A program made the position numbers and the translations under genes. From assembly GCA_021817905.1 (NCBI GenBank), contig JAKAFM010000004.1:1-59281 (forward strand): a DNA stretch of 59,281 bases, in the 5' to 3' direction. Positions within the stretch are counted from its first letter, which is position 1; each line of letters opens with the position of its first letter. Source of the stretch: a bacterium. GTDB taxonomy: Bacteria > Patescibacteriota > Microgenomatia > UBA12405. Of this stretch, positions 16,446 to 35,217 are shown one piece after another. The notes below the pieces were generated by a model that did no database searches, was not told where the DNA came from, and saw nothing but the letters and a program-made list of their open reading frames with translations.

Positions 16446-16479
16446 TATTAAGCTTGTTCTCAGATAATAAACTTACCAT
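16446..16479 (+). promoter_or_regulatory. Internal promoter: TATTAAG-N4-TTCTCAG plus -10 TACCAT
   Basis: Same 11-bp period and 10-nt spacer to the -10 box as at 14698. Confidence 0.55.
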
Positions 16480-16486
16480 TACGGTT

Positions 16487-17710
16487 ATGAAAAAGAAATG
16501 GTTTGTAGTGGTGGCAGTTATACTAGTTATTGTCGGTTATTTCTATATTAGAAGTAAAAATAATACAGCCAAGGTCAGTTATCAGACAGCTCAGGCGACA
16601 AAAGATACTCTGATCACGACGGTAAGTGCGTCGGGCAACATCACTTCGGGAAACAATATTAACATTGCCACCAACGCTTCGGGAACGATTAATCAGGTTT
16701 TTGTTAAGAATGGTGATAAGGTGGTTGCCGGCCAGAAGATAGCCACAATCACACTAGATCAGGACGCTCTGCAACGGCAAACACAAGCATGGGCCAGTTA
16801 TTTGTCAGCTAAGAATCAATTGGCGACAGCCCAGGCAAATCTTAATCAATTGCAGGCGGCGGCGTTTGCAGCTAATCAAAAATTTATTAATGATGCGGTA
16901 TCGCGAAACTTATTACCTGGAGACCCAACTTATATTCAAGAGAATGCCACTTGGTTGCAAGCTCAAGCCAACTATATTAACCAAAATGGGCAAATTGCCC
17001 AAGCTCAGGCAGCACTTCAAAGTGCCTATTACACCTATCAACAAATATCTTCGACGGTGACGGCACCTTCGGCAGGGATAGTCAGCAACCTAACGATTGC
17101 CCCGGGATCACTGGTAAGTGGAGGAACGACATCGGGTAGTAGTTCGACAGCAGCGGCTCAAGTTATAGGGACTATTGCCAAAGAGCAACAAACCCAGGCG
17201 GTAGTTGATTTATCAGAAATCGATGCAGCTAAGGTTTCCCCAAATCAAAAAGTGACTATAACTATGGATGCTTTTCCGAATCAGACTTTTACCGGAAAAG
17301 TACTGGTTATTAATACTAATGGGGCTGTCAGCTCGGGGGTAACTACCTATCCGGCAACAATACTGTTTGATACTTCGCAAAGTAATATGTATCCCAACAT
17401 GGCAGTAAATGCCAAAATTATTACGGCGGTTAAGGATAATGTTATCTTGGTTCCCTCTTCGGCAGTACAGTCTGCCAACGGATCGAGTACTGTTCGGGAA
17501 TTACAAAACGGTAAACTCGTTAATGTTCCCGTAACGCTTGGCGACGCCAATGATAGTTTAACTGAGATAGTGTCGGGGGTTAATGAAGGTGATACGGTGG
17601 TTACTAGTGTAATTAATGGGGTAACTTTAACATCGGGTACCTCAACAACTTCACCTTTTAGTGGCCTAAACCGTGGAGGACCCGGTGGCTTTAGACGGAT
17701 TGGAGGCTAA
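16487..17710 (+). CDS. MacA-like membrane fusion/adaptor protein
   Basis: N-terminal TM; lipoyl halves VFVKNGDKV and VTAPSAGIV; coiled coil; LSEIDAAKV; EIVSGVNEGD. Confidence 0.9.
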   Translation: MKKKWFVVVAVILVIVGYFYIRSKNNTAKVSYQTAQATKDTLITTVSASGNITSGNNINIATNASGTINQVFVKNGDKVVAGQKIATITLDQDALQRQTQAWASYLSAKNQLATAQANLNQLQAAAFAANQKFINDAVSRNLLPGDPTYIQENATWLQAQANYINQNGQIAQAQAALQSAYYTYQQISSTVTAPSAGIVSNLTIAPGSLVSGGTTSGSSSTAAAQVIGTIAKEQQTQAVVDLSEIDAAKVSPNQKVTITMDAFPNQTFTGKVLVINTNGAVSSGVTTYPATILFDTSQSNMYPNMAVNAKIITAVKDNVILVPSSAVQSANGSSTVRELQNGKLVNVPVTLGDANDSLTEIVSGVNEGDTVVTSVINGVTLTSGTSTTSPFSGLNRGGPGGFRRIGG

Positions 17711-17712
17711 TT

Positions 17713-18438
17713 ATGGCGAAAATTACCAAGCCGATTATAGAAACGAGCCACTTGTCAAAGATTTATAAGACCGATGATTTGGAGACAGTGGCCTTGGCTG
17801 ATGTTTCCTTTACAATCAATAAAGGTGAATTTGTAGCAATAATGGGGCCATCGGGGTCGGGTAAGTCGACCTTGATGCATATTTTGGGAGCGCTTGATAA
17901 GCCAACAAGTGGAACTTATATTTTGGATGGAGAAAACGTCGAGAAACTTGATGATGACGAGTTGGCGGATATCAGAAATAGAAAAATTGGTTTTATTTTT
18001 CAAGCCTTTAATTTGTTACCGCGGACAACAACCATGAAAAATGTGATGTTACCGATGGCTTACGCAGGCGTTCCAGTTGAAGAACGAGAGCAGACTGCCG
18101 AAAAGTTTTTGAAGATGGTCGGCTTGGGTGATCGGCTGAAACATACATCAAATCAGTTGTCGGGAGGTCAGCAACAAAGGGTAGCGATTGCCAGATCATT
18201 GGTAATGAACCCGGCATTATTGTTAGCCGATGAACCAACGGGAAATATTGCCAGTGCCCAAGCGGAAGAGATAATGGCAATTTTCCAGAAACTTAATAAT
18301 GAAGGACATACAATTGTGATGATTACTCATGAACCGGATATTGCCGAGCATGCCAAGAGGATTATTCACATTCGCGATGGCAAAATTTTTGAAGATAGTA
18401 ATAACCATCAGCAACGAAAGGTTAACCTTAAAAAATAA
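17713..18438 (+). CDS. MacB/LolD-type ABC ATP-binding protein
   Basis: GPSGSGKST, LSGGQQQR, LLADEPTGN, ITHE. Confidence 0.95.
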   Translation: MAKITKPIIETSHLSKIYKTDDLETVALADVSFTINKGEFVAIMGPSGSGKSTLMHILGALDKPTSGTYILDGENVEKLDDDELADIRNRKIGFIFQAFNLLPRTTTMKNVMLPMAYAGVPVEEREQTAEKFLKMVGLGDRLKHTSNQLSGGQQQRVAIARSLVMNPALLLADEPTGNIASAQAEEIMAIFQKLNNEGHTIVMITHEPDIAEHAKRIIHIRDGKIFEDSNNHQQRKVNLKK

Positions 18439-18440
18439 TT

Positions 18441-19661
18441 ATGGAACTTATTGAACAAATAAAAGAAAGCTTAGGGATGCTAACCCTTAATAAAACGAGG
18501 ACAGGGTTGGCGATTTTGGGAATTGTGATTGGTATTGGCTCAGTAATTGCTTTGATTTCTCTTGGTCAGGCCAGTCAACAGGCGGTGGCTTCACAAATTC
18601 AAGGTTTAGGGGCGAATTTGCTAACAGTTCAACCAGGGGCAGTTAGCCAGGGGGCGGTTCGTGGAGCTGCCGGAGGCAACACTACTTTAACTAATGATGA
18701 TGCCACGGCTATCGCCAGCACCCCGCAAATTACAACGATTCAAAATGTTTCACCGGAGCTGTCGCGAAGGTCTCAGGTAAGAACGGGATCGAGCAATACC
18801 AATACACAAATTGTGGGGGTGACACCGGCTTATGCGCAAGTACATAAAATTACGGTGGATTCTGGAGCTTTTATAACTCAACGGGATGTTGATGCTATTA
18901 ATAAGGTGGCAGTGATTGGGCCACAAGTAGTAACCGATTTATTTAATGGCAATAGCCCCATTGGCCAAACTTTGAGAATTGGAACACAGACATTGACCGT
19001 TATTGGGGTGACAACCTCAAAAGGAGGGAGTGGTTTTTTTAACCAAGATGATATTATTTTTGTGCCGTTGTCGGTGGCTCAAAAACAATTGTTTGGGGTG
19101 AACTATTTAAGTTCAATTGCACTGGAAGCAAAAAGTTCTGATCAAATGACGAATGCCCAAAATGAAGTTGGTTATTTCTTGTTGGCTCGCCATCATTTTA
19201 ATGACCCGGCTCAAGCAGATTTTACGATTACTTCACAGCAGGATATTGTCAATACGGTATCGGCAACGACCGGGACTTTTACGACTTTACTATCGGGAGT
19301 AGCGGCAATTTCGTTATTAGTAGGCGGCATTGGGATTATGAACATTATGTTGGTGACGGTGACTGAACGAACTAGGGAAATTGGACTTCGAAAAGCTTTG
19401 GGTGCCAAAAAAGGAACTATTACGACCCAATTTTTAATTGAATCAATGATTTTGACTTTTTCCGGGGGGGTGATTGGAGTATTGTTGGGAATTGCGGCAT
19501 CGTATCTTTATTCAGTCAGTTCAAATTCGCCTTTTGTAGTATCGCCAAGCTCGGTAGTTTTGGCGTTTGTGGTATCGGTGGGAATCGGTATTTTGTTTGG
19601 TTGGTATCCGGCCAAAAGGGCCTCTCAGTTGCAGCCAATTGAAGCTTTGAGGTATGAATAA
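18441..19661 (+). CDS. MacB/FtsX-type ABC permease
   Basis: LGIVIGIGSVI, VGGIGIMNIMLVTVTERTREIGLRKALGA, PIEALRYE. Confidence 0.95.
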   Translation: MELIEQIKESLGMLTLNKTRTGLAILGIVIGIGSVIALISLGQASQQAVASQIQGLGANLLTVQPGAVSQGAVRGAAGGNTTLTNDDATAIASTPQITTIQNVSPELSRRSQVRTGSSNTNTQIVGVTPAYAQVHKITVDSGAFITQRDVDAINKVAVIGPQVVTDLFNGNSPIGQTLRIGTQTLTVIGVTTSKGGSGFFNQDDIIFVPLSVAQKQLFGVNYLSSIALEAKSSDQMTNAQNEVGYFLLARHHFNDPAQADFTITSQQDIVNTVSATTGTFTTLLSGVAAISLLVGGIGIMNIMLVTVTERTREIGLRKALGAKKGTITTQFLIESMILTFSGGVIGVLLGIAASYLYSVSSNSPFVVSPSSVVLAFVVSVGIGILFGWYPAKRASQLQPIEALRYE

Positions 19662-19729: not shown

Positions 19730-21139
19730 TTATATATCTGGAAAAAGTATAGTTTCTCTTAAGCTTTTTTGATTACCCACAATCATTAATAATCTGTTTA
19801 GACCGATACCCAGTCCAGCAGTTGGTGGTACACCATAATTTAGGGCAATAACTAATGGATCAGTAGAATGATCTCTTTCTTGAATACCCATTTCACTGTC
19901 TTGACCTGCCAACTTCTTTTGAAGTTCAGTTGAGTTAACCAAATTAGTTGATATATCAGCGAATCCAATACCATTCATACATGCCCAAGCCCTTTCAACT
20001 TTATTTTCATCATATCCAGTTGTTTTTCCAAGTGGAGCTAGTCCAACCGGGAAATCCCTCAAAAATGTTGGTTGCAATAGTTTGGGTACAATAATTTTTT
20101 CAATTAACTTACCCACCTCCTGTGTTAAAGGAAGTCCCGAAAGTAGGATATTGTTTTTAGCAGCCATTTTTTTAAGGGAGTCTAAACTATTTATCTCATT
20201 TAGTGAAAAGTCTCCGAATAGCTTAAAGCCTTCATCTACAGTCATTTGTCCCCATTTTGTATCAACATTAATGCATTCTCCATTTAACAAAAAACGAGAT
20301 GTTCCAAACGCTCTCGTGACGGCTTCTCTAACCAAATATTCAGCCAAATCCATCATGCCGTTATAATCTGAATATGCAGCATATGCTTCTAGGGCTGTAT
20401 ATTCCGGGTTGTGGAATCTATCTTGCCCTTCATTCCTAAATGCTTTTCCTAGTTCATAAACCCTTTCATAACCAGCAGCAATCAACTGAACAAGTTCCAA
20501 TTCGCTTGTCGGTCTCATAAACATATCGGTTCCGAGCGAATTTTGGTGAGTGACAAATGGCTTAGCTTGACCAGACCTAAATTGTCTTCTTAAAACAGGT
20601 GTTTCAAATTCTTTAAAACCCAATCTATTAAGATTATCCCTTAATGACATATTTACTTTCGATATTCTGTCAAAAAAGACAAACGAATCTCTATCTGTAA
20701 TTAGTTGTAAAGGGAAATTGCCCCTTCTTTTACCGGTGTCCTGGACACCTTTATAACGATCTGGAAACGGCCCATTAAAACGAGTCACAACCTCTAATTG
20801 CTCCACAACTAGACTTCGCTCTTCCTTTTTAGATACAAAGGCTGAACCTGTAACACTAATTACGTCGCCTGTGTTTAACTGCTTGGCTAATTCGGTGGTT
20901 CCAGGTGTTGTCTCATCTGAAAAAGCTAACTGTGTTTGATCAGACTGGTCTTGGAGAACACCAAAACTTATTGATTTAAATCGTCTAAGATTTCTTACTC
21001 GGCCTCGTAACTCGACTTGTTTATTCTGTGAAAGGATAATACCAAAATCTCTTTTGAAATCGGCTATCAAAATACGCTTTGATTTTGGTTTACCATCTGC
21101 AATTGGTAATATACTTTCAATCATAATTTTATCTTCCAA
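19730..21139 (-). CDS. Class II lysyl-tRNA synthetase-like paralog (OB-fold plus catalytic domain, divergent active site)
   Basis: OB-fold LRGRVRNLR, motif 1 EFETPVL, motif 2 YELGKAFRNEG..HNPEY, motif 3 PPTAGLGIGLNRLLM. Confidence 0.85.
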   Translation of the reverse strand: MEDKIMIESILPIADGKPKSKRILIADFKRDFGIILSQNKQVELRGRVRNLRRFKSISFGVLQDQSDQTQLAFSDETTPGTTELAKQLNTGDVISVTGSAFVSKKEERSLVVEQLEVVTRFNGPFPDRYKGVQDTGKRRGNFPLQLITDRDSFVFFDRISKVNMSLRDNLNRLGFKEFETPVLRRQFRSGQAKPFVTHQNSLGTDMFMRPTSELELVQLIAAGYERVYELGKAFRNEGQDRFHNPEYTALEAYAAYSDYNGMMDLAEYLVREAVTRAFGTSRFLLNGECINVDTKWGQMTVDEGFKLFGDFSLNEINSLDSLKKMAAKNNILLSGLPLTQEVGKLIEKIIVPKLLQPTFLRDFPVGLAPLGKTTGYDENKVERAWACMNGIGFADISTNLVNSTELQKKLAGQDSEMGIQERDHSTDPLVIALNYGVPPTAGLGIGLNRLLMIVGNQKSLRETILFPDI

Positions 21140-22103
21140 ATAGAAATCTCATAGTGTTTGTATAAGAAATATCTTTTCTGACTGAAGTTGGTAAGTCACC
21201 TAAAAGAGTGACTTCGTCTTCATAAACAACTTTTGTAAGAATTTTATGATTATTATCGTCTGTTACTGTCGTCCACGGCTCATCTGTACCCCAAAGAAGT
21301 CTGTCTGGGATCATTTTGTAAAGATCCATTATTACCTGTCTAGGTTTTGAATAGTCCAAATCCAATATTTTTCCATCGTCACGTCTTTGGGCAAAATAAC
21401 AGTTTGTGATATGTGGAGCCAGGTCGGTAAACAAGTTAGGTAACCCATCTTTTGTCAATACAGCAAACAGATCTTTTTCATAATCTCCCGTATGAGCTAT
21501 ACATATCCTTGTATCTGGGTATTTTTTCGCAACTTCGACTATTTGGTCAGGTCTTGAGTACTCATCGGGTCCCGAGTGAATCATAATTGGCAATGAATGT
21601 TCAGTGGCAAATTCTGTAAATTTGGAACCAATAAGTTTTAGGGCATGGGTATGGGTAGCCAGAGTGTGTAGTTTTAATCCAAAGAGTCTGTCCCCATCAA
21701 GAAGCTCTTTCAAAAGATTTAATTGTTCATCCTCTTTTGTACCTGGAAGAATATTTGCAAAAGGCATTATTTGTCCATTTCCAAAGAGTTCAACTTCTGC
21801 AAAGTGCGCTATGTTCGCGTGTTCATATGGAAATCTCTCGGCTGGTTTTTCTAGTTGTTCCCACACAGCATCAAATGCAACTTTTCTAGGGTCAAACCAA
21901 AACAAATCACTTGGGCCGGGAAATACAGCTGCATGGGTTATTCCGTTCGCATTCATCTTTCTGGCCATGTCTATAATACTTTGAGCGATTGGGTATCGAC
22001 GTCTTACTATATTGGTTAAATCTACCCCTGCGTGAGAATGGGCATCAATTGTTTTGGTGCCTGGACTAGCAAGATCTTTAAATATTTCTTCTCGTTCGAT
22101 CAT
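21129..22103 (-). CDS. TIM-barrel metal-dependent amidohydrolase (Amidohydro_2-like)
   Basis: IDAHSH, GLKLH, MIHSG, IAHTG, WGTDEP. Start moved to the ATG at 22103; overlaps the LysRS-like gene by 11 nt. Confidence 0.85.
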   Translation of the reverse strand: MIEREEIFKDLASPGTKTIDAHSHAGVDLTNIVRRRYPIAQSIIDMARKMNANGITHAAVFPGPSDLFWFDPRKVAFDAVWEQLEKPAERFPYEHANIAHFAEVELFGNGQIMPFANILPGTKEDEQLNLLKELLDGDRLFGLKLHTLATHTHALKLIGSKFTEFATEHSLPIMIHSGPDEYSRPDQIVEVAKKYPDTRICIAHTGDYEKDLFAVLTKDGLPNLFTDLAPHITNCYFAQRRDDGKILDLDYSKPRQVIMDLYKMIPDRLLWGTDEPWTTVTDDNNHKILTKVVYEDEVTLLGDLPTSVRKDISYTNTMRFLFGR

Positions 22104-22158
22104 GTGTTGAAAAACTGGCAGGTGAAGTATACAATAACGGCAGTCCAGTATCAAACCT

Positions 22159-23172
22159 ATGAGATATAACAAAGGCCTGACTATCGTCACTTTTTTAGTA
22201 GTCTGTTTTGTTGGCTTAAGTATTCTTCTTAAACATTTTAAAGTTGGATCTTACAGATCACAGATGAATGGAATCCGAGTTGGTTGGCAAATTCCGTGGG
22301 CGACTGAAGGGCAATTGGTGCAAGCAATGAAACACAAGAATCTTTTACAAAAACAGAACTTAAACCCGAATTTTATAGGTTTCAGTTCTGGGGCACCACT
22401 AAATGAAGCAGCTCTTTCGGGTAAAGTTGATGTTATTTTAACCGCGGATCAACCCGCAGCAACGTTACTTAACAAAAATTCTGATTGGGTCATTATAGGC
22501 CGTCTGATGTACAACCGTGTATCGTTATATGTCCCTCCCGATTCTCCAATCAAATCTGGAGCAGATTTAAGAGGTAAAACGGTAGCAATGCCTTTTGGTG
22601 CAGCTGCACAAAGGCTTGCATATAAAGTTGAGCAGAATGCTGGTCTTGATCCTAGTAAAGATGTCAAAAATATAAATATTGACATCTATGAACAATCCTC
22701 ATTGATTACAGATAAAAATGCTACAAAGTGGGGAAATATTGATGCGGTGGCTGGATTTGATCCCACCCCCGCTGTTTTGGAAGAAAAAGGACTTATTAGA
22801 AATATTGCTGTAGGTAAAGTGGTCTCAGTTGTGATGATGTCAAAATCGTATATAATTAAAAACCCAAATGCACCAACTGAATTCTTAAGAGCACTTAATA
22901 ATTCATATGTATACTATAAAGCTAATGTTGGTCAGGTTGATCAGTGGTTTAGAGACGAATCTAAGTTAAATGTTAGTTCGAAAGCTCTTGAAATATCAGC
23001 AAGTATTGAACCTAATATGACTCAACCAAATATTAATCTTTCTTTAAACGATGACGACTATCAGGTATTACAACAAGCAGCAGATTTTATTTATTCAGTA
23101 AAACTTATAAATAAAGACGTCACGATGAAGGATTTTGTGAATTTATCCAGTCTAAAAAATGTTAATAACTAA
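22159..23172 (+). CDS. ABC substrate-binding protein, SsuA/TauA/NMT1 family
   Basis: N-terminal anchor; FSSGAPLNEAALSGKVD; SPIKSGADLRGKTVAMPFG; GNIDAVAGFDP. Confidence 0.88.
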   Translation: MRYNKGLTIVTFLVVCFVGLSILLKHFKVGSYRSQMNGIRVGWQIPWATEGQLVQAMKHKNLLQKQNLNPNFIGFSSGAPLNEAALSGKVDVILTADQPAATLLNKNSDWVIIGRLMYNRVSLYVPPDSPIKSGADLRGKTVAMPFGAAAQRLAYKVEQNAGLDPSKDVKNINIDIYEQSSLITDKNATKWGNIDAVAGFDPTPAVLEEKGLIRNIAVGKVVSVVMMSKSYIIKNPNAPTEFLRALNNSYVYYKANVGQVDQWFRDESKLNVSSKALEISASIEPNMTQPNINLSLNDDDYQVLQQAADFIYSVKLINKDVTMKDFVNLSSLKNVNN

Positions 23173-23174
23173 AA

Positions 23175-24305
23175 ATGAAGCAAAATTTGCTACTTATATC
23201 GCTGGATACTTTAAGGGCAGATGTTGCTTATAGTGGTAAATTTAAGACAATTGAAAAACTTCGTTCTTGCAGTGCCACTTTCATAAATACAATATCCTCA
23301 TCTCCCTTGACCCCATGTAGCCATGCCTCAGTTTTTACAGGATTACAACCATATAATCATGGCGTAAGACATTTATTTAAAGAAAAATTAAAAAAAGACA
23401 CAACAACCTTGGCACAAATACTTAAGGAAAATAATTATAAAACTAAAGCTATTATTTCTTGTCCTGGCATGAATAAATGGTATGGTTTTTCTAAGGGCTT
23501 TGATAATTATGATGACGAAATACCTTTACTCGCCGATGGCTCTGATCCTTTGAAAACTATTGATGTCAAAAAACGAGGCACAGCTTTAAAAAGAGCAAGT
23601 GTTGTTACTGAACGAGCGATTAATTGGTTAGAAAAAAACAAAGATGAACAATTTTTTCTCTTTATACATTATTTTGACGCTCATTGGCCGTATGAGGCGC
23701 CAGAAATATATGGTGGTGATAATGCATACGAGAACGAAGTTGCCTATTCAGATCATTATCTAGGTAAAGTCTTTGACTATTTAGAAAAAAATAAACTAAT
23801 GGATAGCACAACTATAGTTTGCTTCTCTGATCATGGCGAGGATTTAAATGGGTGGTATCCAAATGACAAAGGAGGTAAAAAATTAGGCCATCCTGAGGAA
23901 AATGGTCATGGATGCTTGCTTTATAATCAAACACAAAAAGTAGTTTTGATTATTAAAAACCGTATAATTTCAAAAAAGTCTAATTTTAACAATCAGGTTC
24001 GTTTGATAGATGTGTTACCCACTATCCTAGACTTACTTTCAATAAATTCAAAACTTAAGAATATTGATGGAATTAGTTTGCTACCGGTATTACAAAAAAA
24101 GATTAAAGACTCTTATATTGGTTATTCAGAAACTTTCTATCCTGAGGAGCAAGCCAAAACAGAACCTTCACTGAGCTATGTAAAAAACAAAAAAGCTTTC
24201 TTTTTTGATAACGAATTTAAGGTAATAAATAATTTGGATTCCGATTTGCAAGAAGCTTACGATCTTATAAGTGATATTAATGAAAAATATAACCTTATTA
24301 AATGA
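23175..24305 (+). CDS. Sulfatase / alkaline-phosphatase-superfamily enzyme, Thr-type
   Basis: LISLDTLRAD, SPLTPCSHASVFTG, HYFDAHWPY, FSDHGE, HG. Confidence 0.88.
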   Translation: MKQNLLLISLDTLRADVAYSGKFKTIEKLRSCSATFINTISSSPLTPCSHASVFTGLQPYNHGVRHLFKEKLKKDTTTLAQILKENNYKTKAIISCPGMNKWYGFSKGFDNYDDEIPLLADGSDPLKTIDVKKRGTALKRASVVTERAINWLEKNKDEQFFLFIHYFDAHWPYEAPEIYGGDNAYENEVAYSDHYLGKVFDYLEKNKLMDSTTIVCFSDHGEDLNGWYPNDKGGKKLGHPEENGHGCLLYNQTQKVVLIIKNRIISKKSNFNNQVRLIDVLPTILDLLSINSKLKNIDGISLLPVLQKKIKDSYIGYSETFYPEEQAKTEPSLSYVKNKKAFFFDNEFKVINNLDSDLQEAYDLISDINEKYNLIK

Positions 24306-25720
24306 AAATCAATAATTCCGAGAAGTACAACAAAGTCATTTTAATCTCACTTGATACATTAAGAGCAGATTGTGTTCCGTCGAATCCCAATAAACTTTAT
24401 CCTTCTGAATACAAAGCAAAAGTTAAACTTAATGACTCTGAGGTAAATAAATTATTTTCTAAAGGTGTGTTTTTTAATAATGTTGTGTCGGCTGCGCCCT
24501 ACACATCTTCGTCGCATGCAGCATATTTTACAGGCAAATGGCCTATTCGTAACGGGGTTTACGATCAATTTAACAGCAAACTAAAAACTAAAAGTATTTT
24601 TCAAATATACAAACAAAATGGATATGAGACGATTTTTAAAACAGATTTTCCATTCATTCTGGGTAAATATCTTAACATGATAAAGGGTGTAGATAAATAT
24701 TTTATAGAAGACACGCCATCAGCACTCAAAGAACTTAAATCTAAAAAGAAACAACTGGCATTCTTTCATTTCGGACAGTTCCACTATCCATACGGATTCC
24801 ATAATCTTAAATATGGAGGTAAAGATTATGTCAATAAAATAAACTTTTTAGAGAAAAAATATAAAATTCCAACAGACAAAATTAACTTGGAAGATATGGC
24901 TATGGAGTCGTTTAGGTCAAAAGAAGATACTGAGTTGCTTTATAGATATAAAAAGATAATTGCATACCTTTATAAACACAGGTTGGATAATGATCTCTTT
25001 AATCTTTATTTGGAAGGCATTAATTATTTTAATAAAAACTTTTTGGATAAATTTATAAAAGAACTGCTCGAAACTATTAACAATCAAAACTATTTACTAG
25101 TTATATTTTCCGATCACGGGGAGGCATGGAATGATTATTCCTATGGTCATCACAATTCTTTTGATGAAGGAGTTATCAGAGTTCCTATTGTTTTTTACTA
25201 TAAAGGTGTAACTCCAAAATTATATTCAAATAGGGTACGTACAATAGACCTTGCCCCTACACTTAATGATTTATTATCACCAAACAGTAACAGATTTGAT
25301 GGAAAGAGCTTGTATAAAAAAGTATTTGCTGACGAAGAAGATGGTAACCTTGATGCTTTTTCTGCAATTTGGGTAAATGAATCTACTGATGTCATCAAAA
25401 AAGTCAGAACATTAATTGATAAAGACGAACTAACATTTAATAAATCGCTTTCCATAAGATACGGAGCGGCTTACTATCAACAAAATCTAAAATATACTGA
25501 ATACTATAAAAGATTTACAAATCGGTCTGAGGAGTTAAGTGATGTAAAAGAACATGATACTTTTGAAATCACAGACAATCTTAATGTTTTACAGACACAG
25601 AAAAGATTACCAAAATCTATAAAGCAAAATATAAACAAACTTAACAACATAAAATTACAGTCAAACTCCTCACCTGATATTGTGCGTACTTATCTACGTT
25701 TAAGTGGATACAAGGTCTAA
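24302..25720 (+). CDS. Second sulfatase / alkaline-phosphatase-superfamily enzyme, Thr-type
   Basis: LISLDTLRAD, APYTSSSHAAYFTG, HFGQFHYPY, FSDHGE, YGHH, C-terminal LRLSGY. Confidence 0.85.
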   Translation: MKINNSEKYNKVILISLDTLRADCVPSNPNKLYPSEYKAKVKLNDSEVNKLFSKGVFFNNVVSAAPYTSSSHAAYFTGKWPIRNGVYDQFNSKLKTKSIFQIYKQNGYETIFKTDFPFILGKYLNMIKGVDKYFIEDTPSALKELKSKKKQLAFFHFGQFHYPYGFHNLKYGGKDYVNKINFLEKKYKIPTDKINLEDMAMESFRSKEDTELLYRYKKIIAYLYKHRLDNDLFNLYLEGINYFNKNFLDKFIKELLETINNQNYLLVIFSDHGEAWNDYSYGHHNSFDEGVIRVPIVFYYKGVTPKLYSNRVRTIDLAPTLNDLLSPNSNRFDGKSLYKKVFADEEDGNLDAFSAIWVNESTDVIKKVRTLIDKDELTFNKSLSIRYGAAYYQQNLKYTEYYKRFTNRSEELSDVKEHDTFEITDNLNVLQTQKRLPKSIKQNINKLNNIKLQSNSSPDIVRTYLRLSGYKV

Positions 25721-25721
25721 T

Positions 25722-26300
25722 ATGTCAATTACAACTAAAACTATTCTAAAACTGCAGTATGGTGACTTTACGACTTGTTATCACGAAACAAAAACTGGTG
25801 AGTGTATATCTTTAAGTTATGGAGATATAACAAAACCCTTACCTGTTGTTCGAATTCATTCTTCATGTCTTTTTGGTGAATCGTTTTTATCTCTCCATTG
25901 TGAATGTCGGAATCAACTTGAAGAAACACTTAAACAAATTAAGAAAAACGGTTCAGGTGTGATCATATACACATATGCAGAGGGAAGAGGGATTGGTTTA
26001 GAGAAAAAAATAAAAGCAATGGAAGTTCAAAGAACAAAAAATTTGGATACTGTACAGGCATTTGAGTTTTTAGGGCTACAACCAGACCTTAGAACATATA
26101 GCACTGAAGTAACCGCACTTAAAGAGCTTTATGTAAACCGTAATATAAAGCTAGTTTCAAACAATCCAAATAAGATTAATGCCCTAAATAAGGCAGGTTT
26201 TGTTATAAAAAAAATAGTTAAATTAACCATCAAATTAAATGAATACAACTCAAAAGAATTGATAACCAAAAAGACAAAACTAGGCTATTATATTGATTAA
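25722..26300 (+). CDS. ribA: GTP cyclohydrolase II-fold enzyme (RibA-like, Tyr-to-Met variant)
   Basis: VRIHSSC..GE...HCEC zinc triad, EGRGIGL..KIKAM, DLR, SNNPNK. Confidence 0.85.
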   Translation: MSITTKTILKLQYGDFTTCYHETKTGECISLSYGDITKPLPVVRIHSSCLFGESFLSLHCECRNQLEETLKQIKKNGSGVIIYTYAEGRGIGLEKKIKAMEVQRTKNLDTVQAFEFLGLQPDLRTYSTEVTALKELYVNRNIKLVSNNPNKINALNKAGFVIKKIVKLTIKLNEYNSKELITKKTKLGYYID

Positions 26301-27048
26301 AAGTTTTATGAGAAAAAACATATTAGTACTATTATCCGTTTTGATCTTTTGGCAGATATTGGACTACCTTGCCCTTAACCGTAGCGGTCAGTTCACTTCA
26401 CCTTTCAGTCTTATAACATCAATAATTAATACAATTAAGAATGGGGAAATATTATCAGATGCGCTTGCGAGTATCGTACGAGTCTCCATAGGTTTTGTGA
26501 TTGCTACCTTTTTAGCTATCCCATTAGCCCTGATTTCAGAAACCAATAAAATTATGCGCATTTTTATAAATCCCATTATTGAAGTATTACGTCCAATTCC
26601 ACCAATTGCGTGGATACCAATATCCATTATTTTTTTTGGCCTTGGAGATACGTCATCCTATTTTATTGTCTTTTTAGGCTCATTCTTTCCGATATTCAGT
26701 AATACTTATTTGGGCGCTTCGTCATTGCCGACAATATACAAACATATCGCAGAAACGTTTGAATTGAATAAATCAGATTATTACAGAAAGGTGTTATTAA
26801 AGTTTTCCCTTCCTTATATTTTTACTGGATTAAAAATTGGGATTGGAATGGCATGGATGAGTGTAATCGCCTCAGAACTAGTTAGCGGCCAATCTGGACT
26901 GGGGTATTATATTCAGATCAATAGATTACTTCTTAATCTCGATAACGTAATTATTGGGATGGTATTTATTGGTTTTATTGGGATTGTTTTTAATTTTGGT
27001 TTTACTAAACTAGAACGTAAAATGATACCTTGGAGGAAAAAAATATGA
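26293..27048 (+). CDS. ABC permease, SsuC/TauC family
   Basis: LRPIPPIAWIP, LPYIFTGLKIGIGMAWMSVIASEL, SGLGYYI. The start may be 26308. Confidence 0.92.
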   Translation: MIKSFMRKNILVLLSVLIFWQILDYLALNRSGQFTSPFSLITSIINTIKNGEILSDALASIVRVSIGFVIATFLAIPLALISETNKIMRIFINPIIEVLRPIPPIAWIPISIIFFGLGDTSSYFIVFLGSFFPIFSNTYLGASSLPTIYKHIAETFELNKSDYYRKVLLKFSLPYIFTGLKIGIGMAWMSVIASELVSGQSGLGYYIQINRLLLNLDNVIIGMVFIGFIGIVFNFGFTKLERKMIPWRKKI

Positions 27049-27737
27049 TTTTGATAAAAAATTTATCCTATTCTTACGATATGAATACATATCAAACTAT
27101 TAAGGATCTGTCTTTCAATATACAACAAGGTGAGTTTGTTAGTATTTTAGGAAAATCGGGTTGTGGTAAAACGACATTGGCAAATATTATTTGCGGGTAT
27201 TTAAAACCTACAGAAGGGAAAATAGAAATAGATGGAAAAGCAAGTTTTTATCCGAACAAAAATAAAATTATAATAAACCAAGAAGACGATCTGTTTGATT
27301 GGATGACTATTTACCAGAATATGGAAATTGCTACTCAAGACCGAGACTTAATTCTTAAATATCTCCTTCTTGTAAATCTAGAAGATAGAATAAACGAGTA
27401 TCCGTCTAGTTTGTCTGCTGGAATGAAAAAGAAGTTGTCGTTTATAAGGGCCTTATCTGCAAAACCAGATCTGCTTATTCTTGATGAACCATTTTCGTAT
27501 TTGGACTATTCCACAAAAGCCGAGCTTCTTAAACAGTTTCAAAGAATTATTAAATCATCTAATACTACGACGATCTTAATCACCCACAACATAGACGAAT
27601 CTTTATATTTATCGGATAGAATAATAGTTTTAAAAGGTTATCCGTTTAAAATTTCTAAAGATATTAGATTGGATAGCAAGAAGATTAAAGGACATGCGAT
27701 GGCTAGTTTGGTTGATGACATCAAAAAATCATACTAA
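27045..27737 (+). CDS. ABC ATP-binding protein, SsuB/TauB family
   Basis: GKSGCGKTT, signature LSAGMKKK, LILDEPFSYLD, ITHNIDE. ATGA overlap with the permease stop. Confidence 0.92.
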   Translation: MILIKNLSYSYDMNTYQTIKDLSFNIQQGEFVSILGKSGCGKTTLANIICGYLKPTEGKIEIDGKASFYPNKNKIIINQEDDLFDWMTIYQNMEIATQDRDLILKYLLLVNLEDRINEYPSSLSAGMKKKLSFIRALSAKPDLLILDEPFSYLDYSTKAELLKQFQRIIKSSNTTTILITHNIDESLYLSDRIIVLKGYPFKISKDIRLDSKKIKGHAMASLVDDIKKSY

Positions 27738-27754
27738 CTTTGGTATAATCGCTT

Positions 27755-28741
27755 ATGGACAAAATATTTCCAGAAAAGCTTAAACAAGGTGATGAGGTAC
27801 GAATTATCACTCCTTCTAGATCTTTGGCAATAATTAGCAAAGAGAACAGAGAAAATGGAAACAAAAGATTTGCTGAATTGGGGCTAAAACTTTCATTTGG
27901 AAAACACGCGGAAGAAATTGATGATTTTGTTTCCTCATCAATTAAATCGAGAATAGAAGATTTACATAATGCTTTTTCTGACGAAAATGTTAAAGCCATT
28001 TTGACTGTAATTGGAGGATTTAATTCCAACCAACTTTTGAAATACATTGACTGGAATTTAATAAAAAATAACCCAAAAATCTTTTGTGGATTTTCTGATA
28101 TTACAGCTCTAAATAATGCAATTTTTGCAAAGACTAGCCTTGTTACATATTCTGGACCATTTTATTCAACTTTTGGACAAAAATTATATTTTGACTACAC
28201 CCTGGATTACTTCAAAAAATGTTTGATGTCAGAGGAATCTTTTGAGGTAAAGCCAAGCGATAATTGGAGCGAAGATGTGTGGTATAAGGATCAGAACAAC
28301 AGAAAGTTAGTTCAAAATCCAGGCTGGGTGATAATAAATGAAGGAAAAGCCGAAGGGACAATACTTGGTGATAATTTGTGTACTTTTAACTTACTCCAAG
28401 GAACGGAGTATTTTCCCGATTTATCCAATTCGATTCTATTTATCGAGGATGATGAAGAATCAGCCCCTCATAATTTTGACAGAGATTTACAGTCATTAAT
28501 TCATCTTCCGAATTTTCATAAAGTTAAAGGGATTGTGATAGGAAGATTCCAAAAAGCCAGCGAAATGACAAACGACCTGTTAATTCAAATTATAAAGTCT
28601 AAGAAAGAGTTAAATAATATTCCAGTGATTGCAAATTTGGACTTTGGTCATACAGATCCCAAAATGACTTTCCCGATCGGGGGAAATGTAAAAATATCCG
28701 CATCTAACTTAAAAGTTTCTATTATTATAACTAGCCACTAG
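27755..28741 (+). CDS. S66 peptidase (MccF / LD-carboxypeptidase family)
   Basis: IGGFNSNQLL; Ser in GFSDIT, Glu in FIEDD, His in DFGHTDP; Trp-containing loop NWSEDVWY. Has its own TATAAT 5 nt before the ATG. Confidence 0.9.
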   Translation: MDKIFPEKLKQGDEVRIITPSRSLAIISKENRENGNKRFAELGLKLSFGKHAEEIDDFVSSSIKSRIEDLHNAFSDENVKAILTVIGGFNSNQLLKYIDWNLIKNNPKIFCGFSDITALNNAIFAKTSLVTYSGPFYSTFGQKLYFDYTLDYFKKCLMSEESFEVKPSDNWSEDVWYKDQNNRKLVQNPGWVIINEGKAEGTILGDNLCTFNLLQGTEYFPDLSNSILFIEDDEESAPHNFDRDLQSLIHLPNFHKVKGIVIGRFQKASEMTNDLLIQIIKSKKELNNIPVIANLDFGHTDPKMTFPIGGNVKISASNLKVSIIITSH

Positions 28742-28938
28742 TGTTTAATTGCTGTTTCTCGCGAACAAACCAACCATTCGAATTTTGTGTGAATAGTAAG
28801 TCTGTCAATATACCCTGGACATGCTGTATTTAACATCTTTTCAAACCCAGAACGTATCTGGTCAATATCCGGTGCGGGGGATCTTTCTTTATATTCTTCA
28901 AACTCAAACTCAATTTGGTACAGCCCTTCATCTGTAGA
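28738..28938 (-). pseudogene. C-terminal remnant of a gene truncated at 28937 (possibly CYTH-like)
   Basis: Hand translation: STDEGLYQIEFEFEEYKERSPAPDIDQIRSGFEKMLNTACPGYIDRLTIHTKFEWLVCSRETAIKH*. It has no N-terminal start codon and is preceded by an in-frame TAG inside the IS-like end. Confidence 0.5.
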
Positions 28939-28961
28939 CTAATCTACTAAAGATGTGTCAA
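28937..28961. mobile_element. Solitary IS256-family-like terminal inverted repeat (scar)
   Basis: GACTAATCTACTAAAGATGTGTCAA has the GA-N15-TGTGT layout I recall for IS256-family ends. It sits exactly between two truncated genes. No transposase is present. Confidence 0.4.
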
Positions 28962-29207
28962 GTACCCTGTTTGGATGAATTTGTCGGGTGAGCAAGAGAT
29001 AATGGTTTTGAAAATGCTGAAATTGAAGATTTAACTGCGCGGGTATCTGTATCGGTAAATGCTATGGGGGATAATTCAGAAAAAAAGATTAGAGAAGGGG
29101 GTGAAGTGTCAAGCGTAATTGCACAAAGTAGGCGGGCCTGTGTGGCCACTCGAGACTTGTTGAAAGATGGACTTATGGGTTATTTTAGTTTATTACTTAC
29201 TAAATAG
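28962..29207 (+). pseudogene. C-terminal remnant of a probable class I SAM-dependent methyltransferase with an internal stop
   Basis: Hand translation: VPCLDEFVG*ARDNGFENAEIEDLTARVSVSVNAMG...DGLMGYFSLLLTK*. TGA at 28989. GFxxxEIEDLT and GY..L..xK are typical methyltransferase C-terminal features. Confidence 0.5.
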
Positions 29208-29340
29208 TAATAAAATATTTTATGATGTGTTTGAAGTGTCTTCTTTATCTTAATATTATGAGCATACTATTCTTACGAGTTATACTCACAGTAGCAGTGG
29301 TAAAGTTATCATTATTATAGGTAGTATATAGAGAATGGTT

Positions 29341-29427
29341 TTATATACATACCCGATGTGTAATATACATTATAGGCTCTTTAATTATTGATTTAAAGAC
29401 TCAAAAGAGGTAGAATGGCGGATATGA
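29341..29427 (+). repeat. Conserved upstream/promoter block, copy 1 (copy 2 at 35131-35217)
   Basis: Identical 26-nt run TGTAATATACATTATAGGCTCTTTAA at 29359 and 35149. Both copies end GGTA(G/C)AATGGCGGATATGA. Confidence 0.85.
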
Positions 29428-30992
29428 ATGATGGAGAGAAGCTTATTCGTAAATTGTTAGTAGCTGCAACGTTAACAAGTGGTTTGGCGGCATGTGCTCC
29501 CCAACCCAAGGCAGCAACTCCAGAAATTGTTGGAGGAACGGTGACTCCGGTACCTAGTGCCACGGCTCCAGAAACAGCAACAGTAACTGCCAGCGGCACT
29601 CCCCAGGGTTTAGAGATCAGTCCGACGGTGGCTGCCTTAACGGCCACTCCTGAGTCAATAGAAACAGCCACTACAGTACCAAAGGCTTCGTTGGGAGCAG
29701 TGGAAGTTTTAGGAGCTGGTGATTCAACGATGCTGGGAATGGTTGATCAGGCCAGCTTACAAAAGATAGCTGAAAAGATGGGTCCGGGGGTCATTGTTTA
29801 CTTAAAGGCTGGAGTGCCAAGTGGAACAATTGAACAAGTGGGGAGTAACTATCAGGGAGTGATTACCCAAGTTCCCCAAGAGATAATGGTTACTGGGATA
29901 AGCTACTCTTTAAATCTGTCCAATAGTACTCCCTCTAAAGTAGTGGGGGCAGAGTATGTCTCGGCTGAGGGAAAGAAAATCACTTTGGATAATCAATGGT
30001 TAGCAAGCGGATTAAACTCGGCAGTGGATATAGTATATTATTTTCAAGATCAAAAGAACCCTGACCAGATAAAGGCAGGATTATTACTGAAGAATGGAGA
30101 GGTGGTAAAGGGGAATATTGATAAAGTGAAGGAGGCAGTAGATGTGGTTTCCGTTGACCAAATGGAGCCAATCGATGCCTCTAAAAACCCAGAAAAAATT
30201 GCGGCATTACCAGTCAAAACAGCGGTGGAAGCGTGGGTAAAGGGAAAAATCAGACCAGGAGTCGATCAAGGTATAACTAATGTAAATGCTACAAAATATA
30301 AAGATGGAACAGTAAGATTTGGTGTTATTGATACTGAGGACAATGTTATAAAGGGACAATTGTTAGCTACAAATGATTACATGCCGGCTATTATATTGGG
30401 ATTAGATAAAGCGACTGGTAATGGAATTGAAAATGTGGCGCTCGGAATAACGAGGAAAAACTTACAAGGAGAAGATGTTCAAATTGTACTACGGGTTCCT
30501 TTTGATACTTTTATGGACGTTGGTTATGTTGATAATAAGATAGATGCTTCGTCAAGAAAAAATATTACTGACAGGGCAGCATTTTCTGCTGTTTTAGATA
30601 CAAAAGTTGGTTCGGTGGCTTTAGTCGGCTATCTACGAAAATTTGTACCCGGGGTATTTTTAAATGTAATTGAAGTTAAAAAGGTAAATACATCATATAT
30701 TGATAATGATCCAACTATGCAAAAAGAACCGGAAGATGTGCGTAATTGGGCTAAATTGATGCTCATACTTGATGCAAATGCAGGTAAAGATGTTTCTGGT
30801 TACACAGTTCCAGTTTTGATTGATAAGGCACAAAAACAAGTACAACAATATAAAACATTTGATTTACTTTCAGGATTTTTTACTGGAAAAACGGACAAAA
30901 TTCCTGATGGAGATATTATTTTACCAAATTCAACGGTAACAAAGCTTAATTTGAAAAATATCAGTATTGCTGTTCCACACGAAGGTTCATAA
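29415..30992 (+). CDS. Cassette 1 lipoprotein: conserved N-terminal domain plus unique C-terminal domain
   Basis: Lipobox GLAAC and Ala/Thr/Pro linker. The segment IETAT...NGEVVKGN is homologous to 35205-36644. The start may be 29424. Confidence 0.8.
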   Translation: MADMNDGEKLIRKLLVAATLTSGLAACAPQPKAATPEIVGGTVTPVPSATAPETATVTASGTPQGLEISPTVAALTATPESIETATTVPKASLGAVEVLGAGDSTMLGMVDQASLQKIAEKMGPGVIVYLKAGVPSGTIEQVGSNYQGVITQVPQEIMVTGISYSLNLSNSTPSKVVGAEYVSAEGKKITLDNQWLASGLNSAVDIVYYFQDQKNPDQIKAGLLLKNGEVVKGNIDKVKEAVDVVSVDQMEPIDASKNPEKIAALPVKTAVEAWVKGKIRPGVDQGITNVNATKYKDGTVRFGVIDTEDNVIKGQLLATNDYMPAIILGLDKATGNGIENVALGITRKNLQGEDVQIVLRVPFDTFMDVGYVDNKIDASSRKNITDRAAFSAVLDTKVGSVALVGYLRKFVPGVFLNVIEVKKVNTSYIDNDPTMQKEPEDVRNWAKLMLILDANAGKDVSGYTVPVLIDKAQKQVQQYKTFDLLSGFFTGKTDKIPDGDIILPNSTVTKLNLKNISIAVPHEGS

Positions 30993-31034
30993 AGCATTGT
31001 TATCGAGCGGAATATATTATATTCTTACATATAT

Positions 31035-31631
31035 ATGTTCCGGAAGGTTATGGTTTTCGTTGTCGTTCTAGTTGTTGGATTTGTTGTTTATTGGCTATTT
31101 TCTTCACCTTCAAAACATACTAATGCTCAAATAAATGATTGTAATGGTCAGTTTGCTTTAGACAAAACTGTAAAGTCTTGTGGTTTGGTTAGCTTGTCAA
31201 ATAATACTACTAATTATTATGTTGGAATATTAAAGTCTGTAAGAAAAAGTGGTACAAGTTATTATTTGGATCTTGATGTTGGTAGAGTTATTCCGCTTAG
31301 TTTCTTAATATTTGATTCTATAGGGGTTCATACTGGCAGTGATGTAAAATCACCCACAATCATTAAGGCAGACATAATTGCTCAACTTAAGCCGTATATT
31401 GGTCAAAAAATAACATTACTTTCCCCAAATGGAAAGAGTTTTGCGAGTGTATTGAATTCTCTTTTACCAAAAATTCCGCTTACTCAGTCTATTGGGGTAA
31501 GAAATATGATAGGCTATTTAAATCAGTGTGATGGTGAAATGTCAGAAATGAAGACGGGGGATGTAGTTTATACTTATGGTTTTTTAAAAACCGGCTGTAA
31601 TCTACTGGTAAATGATATATATGTTAACTAA
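31035..31631 (+). CDS. Cassette 1 small membrane-anchored protein
   Basis: Single N-terminal TM, 198 aa, four Cys; overlaps the start of the next gene. Confidence 0.75.
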   Translation: MFRKVMVFVVVLVVGFVVYWLFSSPSKHTNAQINDCNGQFALDKTVKSCGLVSLSNNTTNYYVGILKSVRKSGTSYYLDLDVGRVIPLSFLIFDSIGVHTGSDVKSPTIIKADIIAQLKPYIGQKITLLSPNGKSFASVLNSLLPKIPLTQSIGVRNMIGYLNQCDGEMSEMKTGDVVYTYGFLKTGCNLLVNDIYVN

Positions 31632-35061: not shown

Positions 35062-35130
35062 AGAATCGTATTATAAGATGGTAAATAATAATATTTGTTA
35101 GGTATTTTAGACGGTATATACGGATATACT

Positions 35131-35217
35131 TTATCTACATATTTGATATGTAATATACATTATAGGCTCTTTAAATATTGATTTAGAAGCCTAAAAGGGG
35201 TACAATGGCGGATATGA
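35131..35217 (+). repeat. Conserved upstream/promoter block, copy 2
   Basis: Aligns without gaps to 29341-29427 at an offset of 5790 nt. Confidence 0.85.

Follow-up and report, generated by a model that had tools for sequence, protein, structure and literature searches.

The locus described here raises the question of why a bacterium with a very small genome should carry a compact set of genes that look fit to make, import or dismantle an aminoacylated nucleoside-like compound. The window, by which we mean the whole stretch of 59,281 nucleotides that was analyzed, is one contig (C29; JAKAFM010000004.1) of a Patescibacteriota assembly (GCA_021817905.1; Microgenomatia, UBA12405). The genome comprises 817 kb in 31 contigs and is estimated to be 97% complete; the genomes of 40 sampled relatives measure 0.5–1.1 Mb. 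Four DNA sequencing runs, all from one study, contain the stretch, and no RNA run with it was listed. Open reading frames (ORFs) combined with Pfam and NCBIfam matches placed nine genes in a cassette at 19730–28741, organized as two divergent operons, exactly where an earlier reading made without database searches (hereafter the sequence-only reading) had put them. They encode a lysyl-tRNA synthetase (LysRS) paralogue, a metal-dependent hydrolase (Amidohydro_2), the binding protein, permease and ATPase of an ATP-binding cassette (ABC) importer, two sulfatase-fold proteins termed AP1 and AP2, a GTP cyclohydrolase II homologue and an S66 serine peptidase (Table 1). We tentatively favor the view that the cassette is an acquired, compact unit that builds a lysyl-type aminoacyl-nucleoside sulfamate-like antimetabolite, either of the ascamycin type or a close isostere, and hold it with slightly less than even confidence.

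The link to known chemistry is provided by AP1 and AP2. Both match the sulfatase family PF00884, and AP2 has the metal-binding Asp residues and the DH(G)E site of the two-domain sulfatase fold (D18, D23, D271 and H272), which are invariant together with T68 and H72. The predicted structure of AP2 (predicted local distance difference test score, pLDDT, 86.9) gave its best fold match with choline sulfatase (E = 5e-18, template modelling (TM) score 0.5–0.57, 14% identity), and choline sulfatase and other S1 sulfatases together fell between E = 5e-18 and 1e-15 at the same TM scores. Where sulfatases have the C-x-P-S-R motif, the aligned residues read T-P-C-S-H in AP1 and T-S-S-S-H in AP2; in both, Thr takes the place of the formylglycine Cys and His that of the Arg. 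These replacements are invariant across the family, Streptomyces homologues included, and the C/S-x-P-x-R formylglycine motif of S1 sulfatases was absent from AP1, AP2 and every homologue aligned. Both proteins lack a signal peptide and begin directly at a metal-binding DTLRAD segment, and both gave weak Pfam matches to Phosphodiest (PF01663). The prediction of two sulfatase-fold enzymes holds for the fold, but with the formylglycine motif missing AP1 and AP2 are not true sulfatases; their motifs suggest a covalent Thr intermediate rather than formylglycine chemistry.

A search for relatives of AP2 yielded 271 proteins at E ≤ 0.001, and 78 genome loci and 79 metagenome loci were compared by tblastn. 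In the Streptomyces loci L025, L026, L027 and L045, AP1 and/or AP2 lie beside sulfamoyl-assembly-type genes, as they do in whole or in part in L017, L021, L106, L116 and L124; identities to the proteins of the four Streptomyces loci were 52–53% for AP1 and 37–40% for AP2. The neighboring genes encode a B12-radical S-adenosylmethionine (SAM) enzyme, a sulfotransferase, a methyltransferase, a rubrerythrin, a 658-aa GyrB-methyltransferase fusion, a 461-aa NucO-like protein with a weak sulfotransferase signal and an amidinotransferase. These kinds and sizes of genes fit both the published nucleocidin (nuc) set, in which nucI, G, J, K, L, N, O, Q and P are each required for sulfamylation according to the available portion of the knock-out study (PMC10946740), and the ascamycin (acm) cluster, whose Table 1, in the excerpt at hand, gives sizes of 658 for AcmP, 155 for AcmQ, 444 for AcmO, 356 for AcmK and 480 for AcmG (PMC4257720).

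We classed as importer-linked those loci in which AP2 occurs with a binding protein, permease or ATPase gene; there are 29 of them, including the window and the near-duplicates L103 and L104. Where the records are named, their labels read Saccharibacteria, Paceibacterota, "Patescibacteria group", uncultured archaeon and other metagenome-assembled genomes. In the AP1 tree, 27 importer-linked and five nuc-like rows grouped together on a long stem with 100/100 support, and 28 generic sulfatase-like rows fell outside this clade. Judged by sequence, AP1 and AP2 are orthologous to the pair in the Streptomyces nuc/acm-like loci, a name that we give to those loci from their gene content as compared with published descriptions. 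The suspected connection with sulfamoyl-nucleoside clusters is consequently well founded, since the orthologues sit in Streptomyces loci with a NucJ/K/L/N/O/P/Q-type set. What the two "sulfatases" do in nucleocidin and ascamycin sulfamoyl assembly is called elusive in reviews and in the accessible text of the knock-out study (PMC10946740). The window and the loci with the nuc gene set have the pair and its Thr/His motif in common; they differ in that the window has only this G/I-type pair, no fluorination or glucosylation genes, and in addition an aminoacyl-tRNA synthetase (aaRS) paralogue and an importer. Locus L010 has eight of the nine cassette genes in the same order at 48–67% identity, confirming that the families co-occur in other genomes. 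It differs by an extra NIF3/DUF34 gene and by a second, canonical-like LysRS after the ATPase, where the window has the S66 peptidase.

The aaRS paralogue of the window is derived from LysRS but falls short of the LysS family, with 339 bits against a cut-off of 468 for NF001756 (lysine–tRNA ligase) and 297 against 427.6 for TIGR00499. The canonical LysRS encoded on contig C23 of the same genome passes both, with 497 and 455 bits; this enzyme (G000, locus L002 1015–2919, minus strand) is 634 aa long and has a YtpR/PheT-N-like tRNA-binding domain fused to its C-terminus. Nor does the paralogue belong to EpmA (GenX), as it scored 119 bits against 286.9 for TIGR00462 and has the oligonucleotide-binding (OB) anticodon domain. 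Among 5.8 billion proteins, only four close relatives were found (72, 58, 58 and 51% identity), the remaining matches being canonical LysRS at ≤36%; three of the four are on contigs with the same lengths (9586 and 11243 nt) as contigs that carry close relatives of AP2 and Amidohydro_2, which suggests that the genes lie together. When six members of this clade were aligned with nine canonical enzymes, the OB anticodon domain, the class II core and the motif 2 FRNEG were retained, and the canonical consensus ERFE...GxE..N..ELNDP before motif 3 was replaced by ERAWAC..G..F.DIS.N in all six. This removes two acidic residues and a Glu/Asn, which we take to be Mg-ATP and lysine ligands in LysU. Other changes in the clade are GGA to SGQ and the motif 3 Asp to Asn. 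The conservation of a clade-specific signature argues for a new function rather than decay.

The presence of an aaRS paralogue, as proposed from the sequence alone, is borne out, and its loss of canonical ATP-site residues resembles that of the ascamycin transferase AcmF. In the portion of the ascamycin account available to us, AcmD is described as a resistant, charging AlaRS, and AcmF as a truncated AlaRS-like protein without the ATP and alanine-activation residues that moves Ala from Ala-tRNA to the sulfamoyl nitrogen (PMC12945691). The window paralogue likewise combines an aaRS fold and preserved tRNA-binding parts with the loss of residues for activating ATP and the amino acid. By its sequence and by this analogy, we propose that it is a putative aminoacyl-tRNA-dependent transferase.

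Similar enzymes recur in the related cassettes. In at least 18 of the 29 importer-linked loci, an aaRS-like gene is part of the cassette or no more than 1.5 kb away. This count, made with a panel of 11 queries covering seven aaRS types, is a lower bound, as four of the 11 negative loci are contigs shorter than 3 kb. As a rough control from one genome, random 6–12 kb spans in the window's own genome contained a panel-detectable aaRS at 10–19% of positions. Across all loci with an AP2 match, whether or not an importer was in view, we found Lys-type genes in the window and L010; His-type genes, usually two, in 10 loci (L088 and L016 being from the same genome); two Cys-type genes with a small radical SAM enzyme in L090, L092 and L095, and one CysRS before the end of the short contig L089; a 377-aa AlaRS-like protein with LeuRS in L013, L097 and L105; a 596-aa AlaRS in L022 and L122; and two Asp-type genes in L121. 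In loci with two aaRS genes, NCBIfam identifies one as canonical, its partner being divergent or ATP-blind. For instance, HisA scored 365 and HisB 215 against a cut-off of 287. All six HisB proteins lack three residues of the motif-2 loop and carry His instead of Arg in ARGLDYY, two positions at which all five HisA proteins and the genome's own HisRS keep the usual form. Similarly, all three CysB proteins have QIGN for HLGH and an altered KMSKS, both of which CysA retains, so that HisB and CysB follow the same AcmF-like pattern as the LysRS paralogue.

The Cys-type loci also contain a tRNA. A tRNA-Cys(GCA) gene adjoins the CysRS genes in the operon in all four loci that cover the spot (L089, L090, L092 and L095), lying between the small radical SAM gene and a CysRS gene. 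The second CysRS gene follows directly in L090 and L092 and stands 2 kb further on, past AP2 and RibA, in L095; the L089 contig ends there. An Rfam scan over nine related loci detected tRNAs only. By analogy, the pairs of canonical and ATP-blind aaRS genes seem to mirror AcmD and AcmF. A HisRS-like gene with the HGTG.YSG signature of the HisB paralogues in importer-linked cassettes was also seen in Streptomyces sp. (L029, 4670–15314), together with an inosine monophosphate dehydrogenase-like gene, 6-pyruvoyl-tetrahydropterin synthase, DUF6027, AP2, an amidinotransferase and two major facilitator superfamily (MFS) transporters.

From the observed gene content, orthology, loss of active-site motifs, recurring architecture and acquisition, we infer the chemical steps and the imported compound as follows. 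The SsuA-type importer would supply a sulfur(VI) donor, replacing the seven-gene Streptomyces route; the cell would be unable to produce this donor itself, and the queries used turned up neither a 3'-phosphoadenosine 5'-phosphosulfate (PAPS) route nor a sulfotransferase in its genome. AP1 and AP2 may then attach the sulfur(VI) group to a nucleoside or nucleotide at its 5'-position, via the covalent Thr intermediate, while the cyclohydrolase could supply or reshape a guanine-derived nucleotide, probably ring-opened. The LysRS paralogue would bind tRNA and, much as AcmF uses Ala-tRNA, take Lys or a similar residue from a tRNA that the canonical LysRS has charged and pass it to the newly installed group. 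Finally, Amidohydro_2 and the S66 peptidase might trim, mature or detoxify the aminoacyl conjugate. The strongest support for this scheme is the repeated, independent pairing of the AP1/AP2 module with ATP-blind aaRS paralogues, and with a dedicated tRNA in one variant. The pairing favors biosynthesis because neither hydrolysis nor replacement of an inhibited target needs an ATP-blind aaRS or a dedicated tRNA.

Comparison with ascamycin shows how far the analogy goes. Both systems have two sulfatase-fold proteins of similar size classes (AcmG and AcmI in acm) and an adjacent aaRS-derived, ATP-site-degenerate enzyme, to which the sister loci add a second, canonical-like aaRS; both also have a hydrolase that may in principle remove the aminoacyl group (AcmE in acm). 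In contrast, the window lacks genes for PAPS, sulfotransferases, radical SAM, amidinotransferase, GyrB-methyltransferase and rubrerythrin and has an ABC importer instead, its paralogue comes from LysRS (class IIb) and not from AlaRS, and the host genome is only 0.8 Mb. When the seven other sulfamoyl-assembly proteins were used as tblastn queries, none was found in the window or in the importer-linked loci. Elsewhere in the genome, NucP hit nothing but a GyrB-type region on another contig, and weak matches to generic methyltransferases on other contigs came from the methyltransferase part of NucP and from NucL. With the queries used, the genome showed no Sulfotransfer_3, no ATP sulfurylase and, above cut-off, no adenosine 5'-phosphosulfate (APS) kinase. 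A second parallel is SbzA of SB-203208, an IleRS copy that carries Ile from Ile-tRNA to a sulfonamide and is thus another cluster aaRS paralogue proposed to acylate an S–N group, as stated in the accessible part of PMC12945691. SbzA differs in keeping weak canonical activity and in doubling as the resistance copy, whereas the window paralogue has lost conserved ATP-site residues.

Several observations weigh against biosynthesis of a sulfamate. The cassette has no exporter of its own, since the neighboring MacB/HlyD genes are ancestral (see below). The most constant partner of AP1 is the importer that depends on the substrate-binding protein (SBP), the adjacency of the binding protein and AP1 genes being the most conserved feature of importer-linked loci, and breakdown or salvage of a compound taken up from outside would explain this no less well. 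In one module, L047, AP1 is accompanied by the three importer components but by neither an AP2-type nor an aaRS gene. Of the nine nuc sulfamylation genes, seven (J, K, L, N, O, P and Q) are missing, which leaves the formation of the S–N bond unexplained. The paralogue has lost the residue aligned to the lysine-binding Glu, making the identity of the amino acid uncertain, and the window contains no second LysRS gene linked to the cassette and no tRNA gene anywhere along its length. The S66 gene is patchy in relatives that lack the cassette. The orthology of AP1 and AP2 to AcmG and AcmI is drawn by way of the nuc/acm-like loci, AcmG, AcmI and AcmF having been compared by the sizes and descriptions in the available excerpts. 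Moreover, a Thr nucleophile is typical of phosphoryl-transferring members of the alkaline phosphatase superfamily, and the chemistry could be phosphorus-based.

On that last point, the product of the same architecture might be not a sulfamate but an N-acyl phosphoramidate nucleotide resembling microcin C, agrocin 84 or phosmidosine, in which case AP1 and AP2 would transfer phosphoryl or nucleotidyl groups. Besides the Thr nucleophile, the weak Phosphodiest matches of AP1 and AP2 and a weak match of the binding protein to a phosphonate-binding family are in keeping with this, and MccF-like immunity proteins belong to phosphoramidate antibiotics in the portion of PMC8323819 at hand. We nevertheless consider it very improbable, as the sole genetic data on the orthologues, in the text available (PMC10946740), tie them to sulfamylation, the AP2 fold best matches S1 sulfatases, and the binding protein is nearer to sulfonate binders than to PhnD.

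The importer-centered facts suit a different scheme, in which the importer takes up an aminoacyl-nucleoside sulfamate or free nucleoside sulfamate from neighbors, S66 and Amidohydro_2 cleave the amide, AP1 and AP2 hydrolyze the sulfamate ester, and the paralogue is a decoy or aminoacyl handler. The net effect would be detoxification together with salvage, in an organism unable to make nucleosides or amino acids. Members of this transporter family that depend on an SBP work as importers, and the binding protein–AP1 adjacency, the L047 module and the missing exporter all agree with uptake; the sulfatase fold may suggest hydrolysis, and MccF-type S66 enzymes cleave aminoacyl-nucleotide antibiotics, as described in the accessible portion of PMC8323819. 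We think this scheme unlikely, however. The pairs of canonical and ATP-blind aaRS and the embedded tRNA-Cys are unneeded for hydrolysis or resistance. An ATP-blind LysRS cannot stand in for an inhibited LysRS, and the ligand-binding residues expected of a decoy are also lost. Returning the aminoacyl group from an N-acyl sulfamate to tRNA would presumably run uphill, and the Streptomyces orthologues are required to make the sulfamoyl group, not to remove it, according to the available part of PMC10946740.

The importer itself was assigned by its three components. The binding protein has an N-terminal membrane anchor and is 52–65% identical to its partners in related cassettes. It scored below family cut-offs (106 bits against 163.5 for TIGR01728, SsuA_fam; 32 against 304 for the taurine model), and its nearest solved structure is SsuA (2x26, E = 5e-7). 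The permease likewise gave below-cut-off matches to nitrate, taurine and sulfonate permease models. From these matches, the importer can be placed in the SsuABC/TauABC transporter class.

A further reading is nutrient scavenging that has nothing to do with aaRS inhibitors. Here an organosulfate, sulfonate or phosphoester would enter through the importer and be cleaved by AP1 and AP2 as a source of sulfur, phosphorus or carbon, and the aaRS, cyclohydrolase and S66 genes would be neighbors with other roles, for example in aminoacylating an envelope or cofactor-like molecule. The nearest families of the binding protein are binders of aliphatic sulfonates, taurine and nitrate. In L023, L012 and L100 (loci labeled Janthinobacterium and Acidobacteriaceae, and a metagenome contig), AP2 accompanies an NMT1-type ABC system with no aaRS genes; 11 of the 29 importer-linked loci show no aaRS gene, and small genomes put an aaRS near any locus fairly often, as the control spans show. 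Yet 18 of 29 is well above that baseline, and duplicated ATP-blind paralogues are not housekeeping genes. AP1 and AP2 lack signal peptides and the formylglycine motif, and are orthologous to enzymes of a secondary-metabolite pathway, and no sulfur-assimilation route for released sulfate was found in the genome with the queries used. We therefore judge scavenging to be distinctly improbable.

The cyclohydrolase scored 160 bits against 148 for NF001591 but 150 against 205.85 for the equivalog TIGR00505. It retains the zinc Cys triad (C55, C66 and C68) and R130 (E. coli R128), all invariant, and has Met (Met106) at the position of E. coli Tyr105, a substitution found in all nine cassette-linked homologues, including that beside AP2 in Streptomyces L045. 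This Met bears out the description of the protein as a variant GTP cyclohydrolase. No lumazine (6,7-dimethyl-8-ribityllumazine, DMRL) synthase or 3,4-dihydroxy-2-butanone 4-phosphate (DHBP) synthase was detected in the 97%-complete genome, with 14 of 14 controls positive, so riboflavin synthesis is not the role of the enzyme. A Met-type homologue in Streptomyces coelicolor reportedly stops at the formylamino-pyrimidine nucleotide. The window protein shares the replacement of the catalytic Tyr by Met with SCO6655, the third GTP cyclohydrolase II copy of S. coelicolor. In the text available of a review, this third copy is credited with a new role that does not concern flavins (PMC13151069). The cyclohydrolase is the only element of the cassette behind the idea of a purine-derived metabolite. 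Genes that handle nucleosides do, in addition, recur in cassette variants (PNP_UDP_1, Glycos_transf_3, HAD, NUDIX and a deaminase).

Amidohydro_2 has 46 relatives, and D20, H22, H24, K144, H176, H204 and D274, a full metal-ligand set, are invariant in 33 sequences; sequence searches against solved structures returned only chance-level matches. A 38% identical homologue in genome G170 (contig C1, L188, 5372–13174) is overlap-coupled to a Trp/Tyr-type aaRS paralogue, and homologues in two other genomes adjoin M19 dipeptidases. These neighbors point to action on aminoacyl conjugates. L188 also contains two radical SAM enzymes, two unknown genes, a ThiF-like enzyme and a methyltransferase.

The S66 protein has both S66 domains and matched the "MccF-like BA_5613" structure of B. 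anthracis (4e5s, E = 7e-120) and Listeria Lmo1638 (E = 3e-113) far better than B. anthracis MccF (3gjz, E = 2.5e-49), E. coli MccF (3tla, E = 1e-38) or LdcA (1zrs, E = 2e-15). The MccF-like assignment therefore holds, in the sense that this two-domain peptidase is much nearer to MccF-like structures than to LdcA; it differs from MccF in that its nearest branch, BA_5613/Lmo1638, consists in the solved structures of structural-genomics entries and is uncharacterized and not proven MccF, and in that there are no mcc genes. S66 genes occur in 10 of the 40 relatives, mostly at low identity, and a 65% identical copy in G012 is non-syntenic, in an unrelated context. The cassettes of L107, L091 and L122 also have S66 genes at their flanks, but these belong to other lineages. 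Since its closest relative is the B. anthracis MccF-like protein and L010 has no such gene at the same position, the S66 peptidase was probably recruited separately into the cassette as an accessory.

The cassette is horizontally acquired. In G001 (same genus) and G019 (same family), the orthologue of the MacB-type gene at 18441–19661 (79% and 70% identity, respectively) is directly followed by the orthologue of 40296–40730, from which it follows that approximately 19.7–40.25 kb of the window is one insertion of 20.5 kb. AP2 orthologues are rare, with only two weak partial matches among the 40 relatives and one orthologue in 400 other sampled genomes of the phylum, in line with the suggestion of horizontal acquisition in the sequence-only reading. 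No flanking direct repeats or integrase were seen at the island ends, and megablast of the whole region against a plasmid collection gave no match. The HlyD/ABC ATPase/MacB-type exporter genes at 16454–19661 abut the cassette; they look ancestral, because MacB-type orthologues occur in G001 and in same-family genomes, and the exporter was rejected as a cassette member.

Table 1. Positions in the window of the cassette genes and of the inserted island.
Feature	Position	Strand	Basis
LysRS-like paralogue	19730–21139	−	Pfam tRNA-synt_2 + tRNA_anti-codon; NCBIfam
Amidohydro_2 metal-dependent hydrolase	21129–22103	−	Pfam PF04909
Divergent intergenic region, 55 nt	22104–22158		Sequence
SsuA/NMT1-family substrate-binding protein, membrane-anchored	22159–23172	+	Pfam NMT1
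AP1, sulfatase-fold, cytoplasmic	23175–24305	+	PF00884
AP2, second sulfatase-fold enzyme	24302–25720	+	PF00884
GTP cyclohydrolase II homologue, Met type	25704–26300	+	PF00925
ABC importer permease, NitT/TauT type	26293–27048	+	PF00528
ABC importer ATPase	27030–27737	+	PF00005; NCBIfam matches
S66 serine peptidase, MccF-like branch	27755–28741	+	PF02016 + PF17676 (both S66 domains)
Inserted island relative to G001 and G019; cassette left, tandem duplication right	19700–40250		Synteny break

The layout agrees closely with what had been read from the letters. A plausible ATG of the amidohydrolase gene at 22103 leaves a gap of exactly 55 nt to the binding-protein ATG at 22159, confirming two divergent, tightly coupled operons; within them, neighboring genes overlap (by 11 nt for Amidohydro_2 and the LysRS paralogue) or are at most 18 nt apart. 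The gene order also shows the three enzymes AP1, AP2 and cyclohydrolase nested between the binding protein and the permease and ATPase. Promoter-like hexamers overlap on both strands of the 55-nt gap (plus strand 22107–22135, minus strand 22154–22126), but the scan gave a total of 36 against 39.6 expected, which is not above chance. An Rfam scan of 16–42 kb found nothing at E ≤ 0.1, and there is thus no riboswitch pointing to a ligand. The claim that the region is more AT-rich than its flanks stands in part: the GC content drops to 0.30–0.35 only at 23–29 kb, and the part from the LysRS-like to the binding-protein gene is at 0.38 compared with 0.39–0.44 in the left flank. A methyltransferase-like remnant had been suspected at 28742–29207; this was not upheld, as the segment has no Pfam match and none of its four stop-to-stop fragments matched any family at E ≤ 0.1.

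If the cassette does make a sulfamate-like antimetabolite, organisms thought to be nearly devoid of biosynthesis would hold a chemical weapon against translation, which bears on how episymbionts compete with or control hosts and neighbors. A broader proposal would be that small-genome bacteria and archaea carry modular minimal cassettes for aminoacyl-nucleoside sulfamate-like aaRS inhibitors, that ATP-blind paralogues of LysRS, HisRS, CysRS, AspRS and AlaRS repeatedly became target-specifying transferases, and that AP1 and AP2 are sulfamoyl-installing enzymes fed by an imported S–N or sulfur(VI) donor in place of the nine-gene pathway of Streptomyces; this we find rather doubtful. If true, the chemistry of AcmF, so far that of a single AlaRS-derived enzyme, would span at least four aaRS families and yield a set of tRNA-dependent aminoacyl transferases. 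Should the cassette dismantle such compounds instead, it would represent a new means of resisting and salvaging nucleoside sulfamates that hijack aaRS. The assembly of the sulfamoyl group in nucleocidin and ascamycin is unsolved, and a natural minimal context of two enzymes and an importer hints at where AP1 and AP2 act, besides offering small, soluble, low-GC proteins for assay. The literature searched, outside of which lie most subscription journals, yielded no account of cassettes linked to an importer, nor of AcmF-like enzymes derived from LysRS, HisRS or CysRS. What is probably new here, by sequence and analogy, is an aminoacyl-nucleoside sulfamate-like cluster in minimal genomes that isolates the two orphan sulfamoyl-assembly enzymes.

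A few other features were noted in the related cassettes and in the rest of the island. A NIF3/DUF34 gene, from a family proposed to act as a metal chaperone, is present in or beside the cassette of L010, L013, L015, L020, L092, L095, L105, L114 and L121, often between AP1 and AP2; the window has none. A 446–480-aa protein with no Pfam family, containing a stretch that resembles the phosphoribosyl pyrophosphate (PRPP)-binding motif of phosphoribosyltransferases, is encoded just upstream of AP2 in L015, L016, L020, L107 and L114, and on the opposite strand approximately 2.9 kb upstream in L109. This protein of His-type cassettes was considered as a NucO homologue and rejected (hhalign probability 0.07%). 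In the His-type cassette of L104, a 442-aa protein with a Mom-family match (PF25680, E = 1e-12) is encoded at 6446–7774, between AP2 and the permease. The right half of the island in the window is a tandem duplication separate from the cassette (29313–40220), with a period of 5.2–5.8 kb, repeats D1–D5 and 70–79% DNA identity in parts. Among the six large ORFs at 29.4–40.2 kb, five matched no Pfam family and the 479-aa ORF gave only a sub-threshold TAT-signal match (22.6 bits, below 22.7). The duplicated module consists of three large genes of unassigned function, encoding 525, 198 and 1149 aa in one copy and 479, 178 and 1003 aa in the other.

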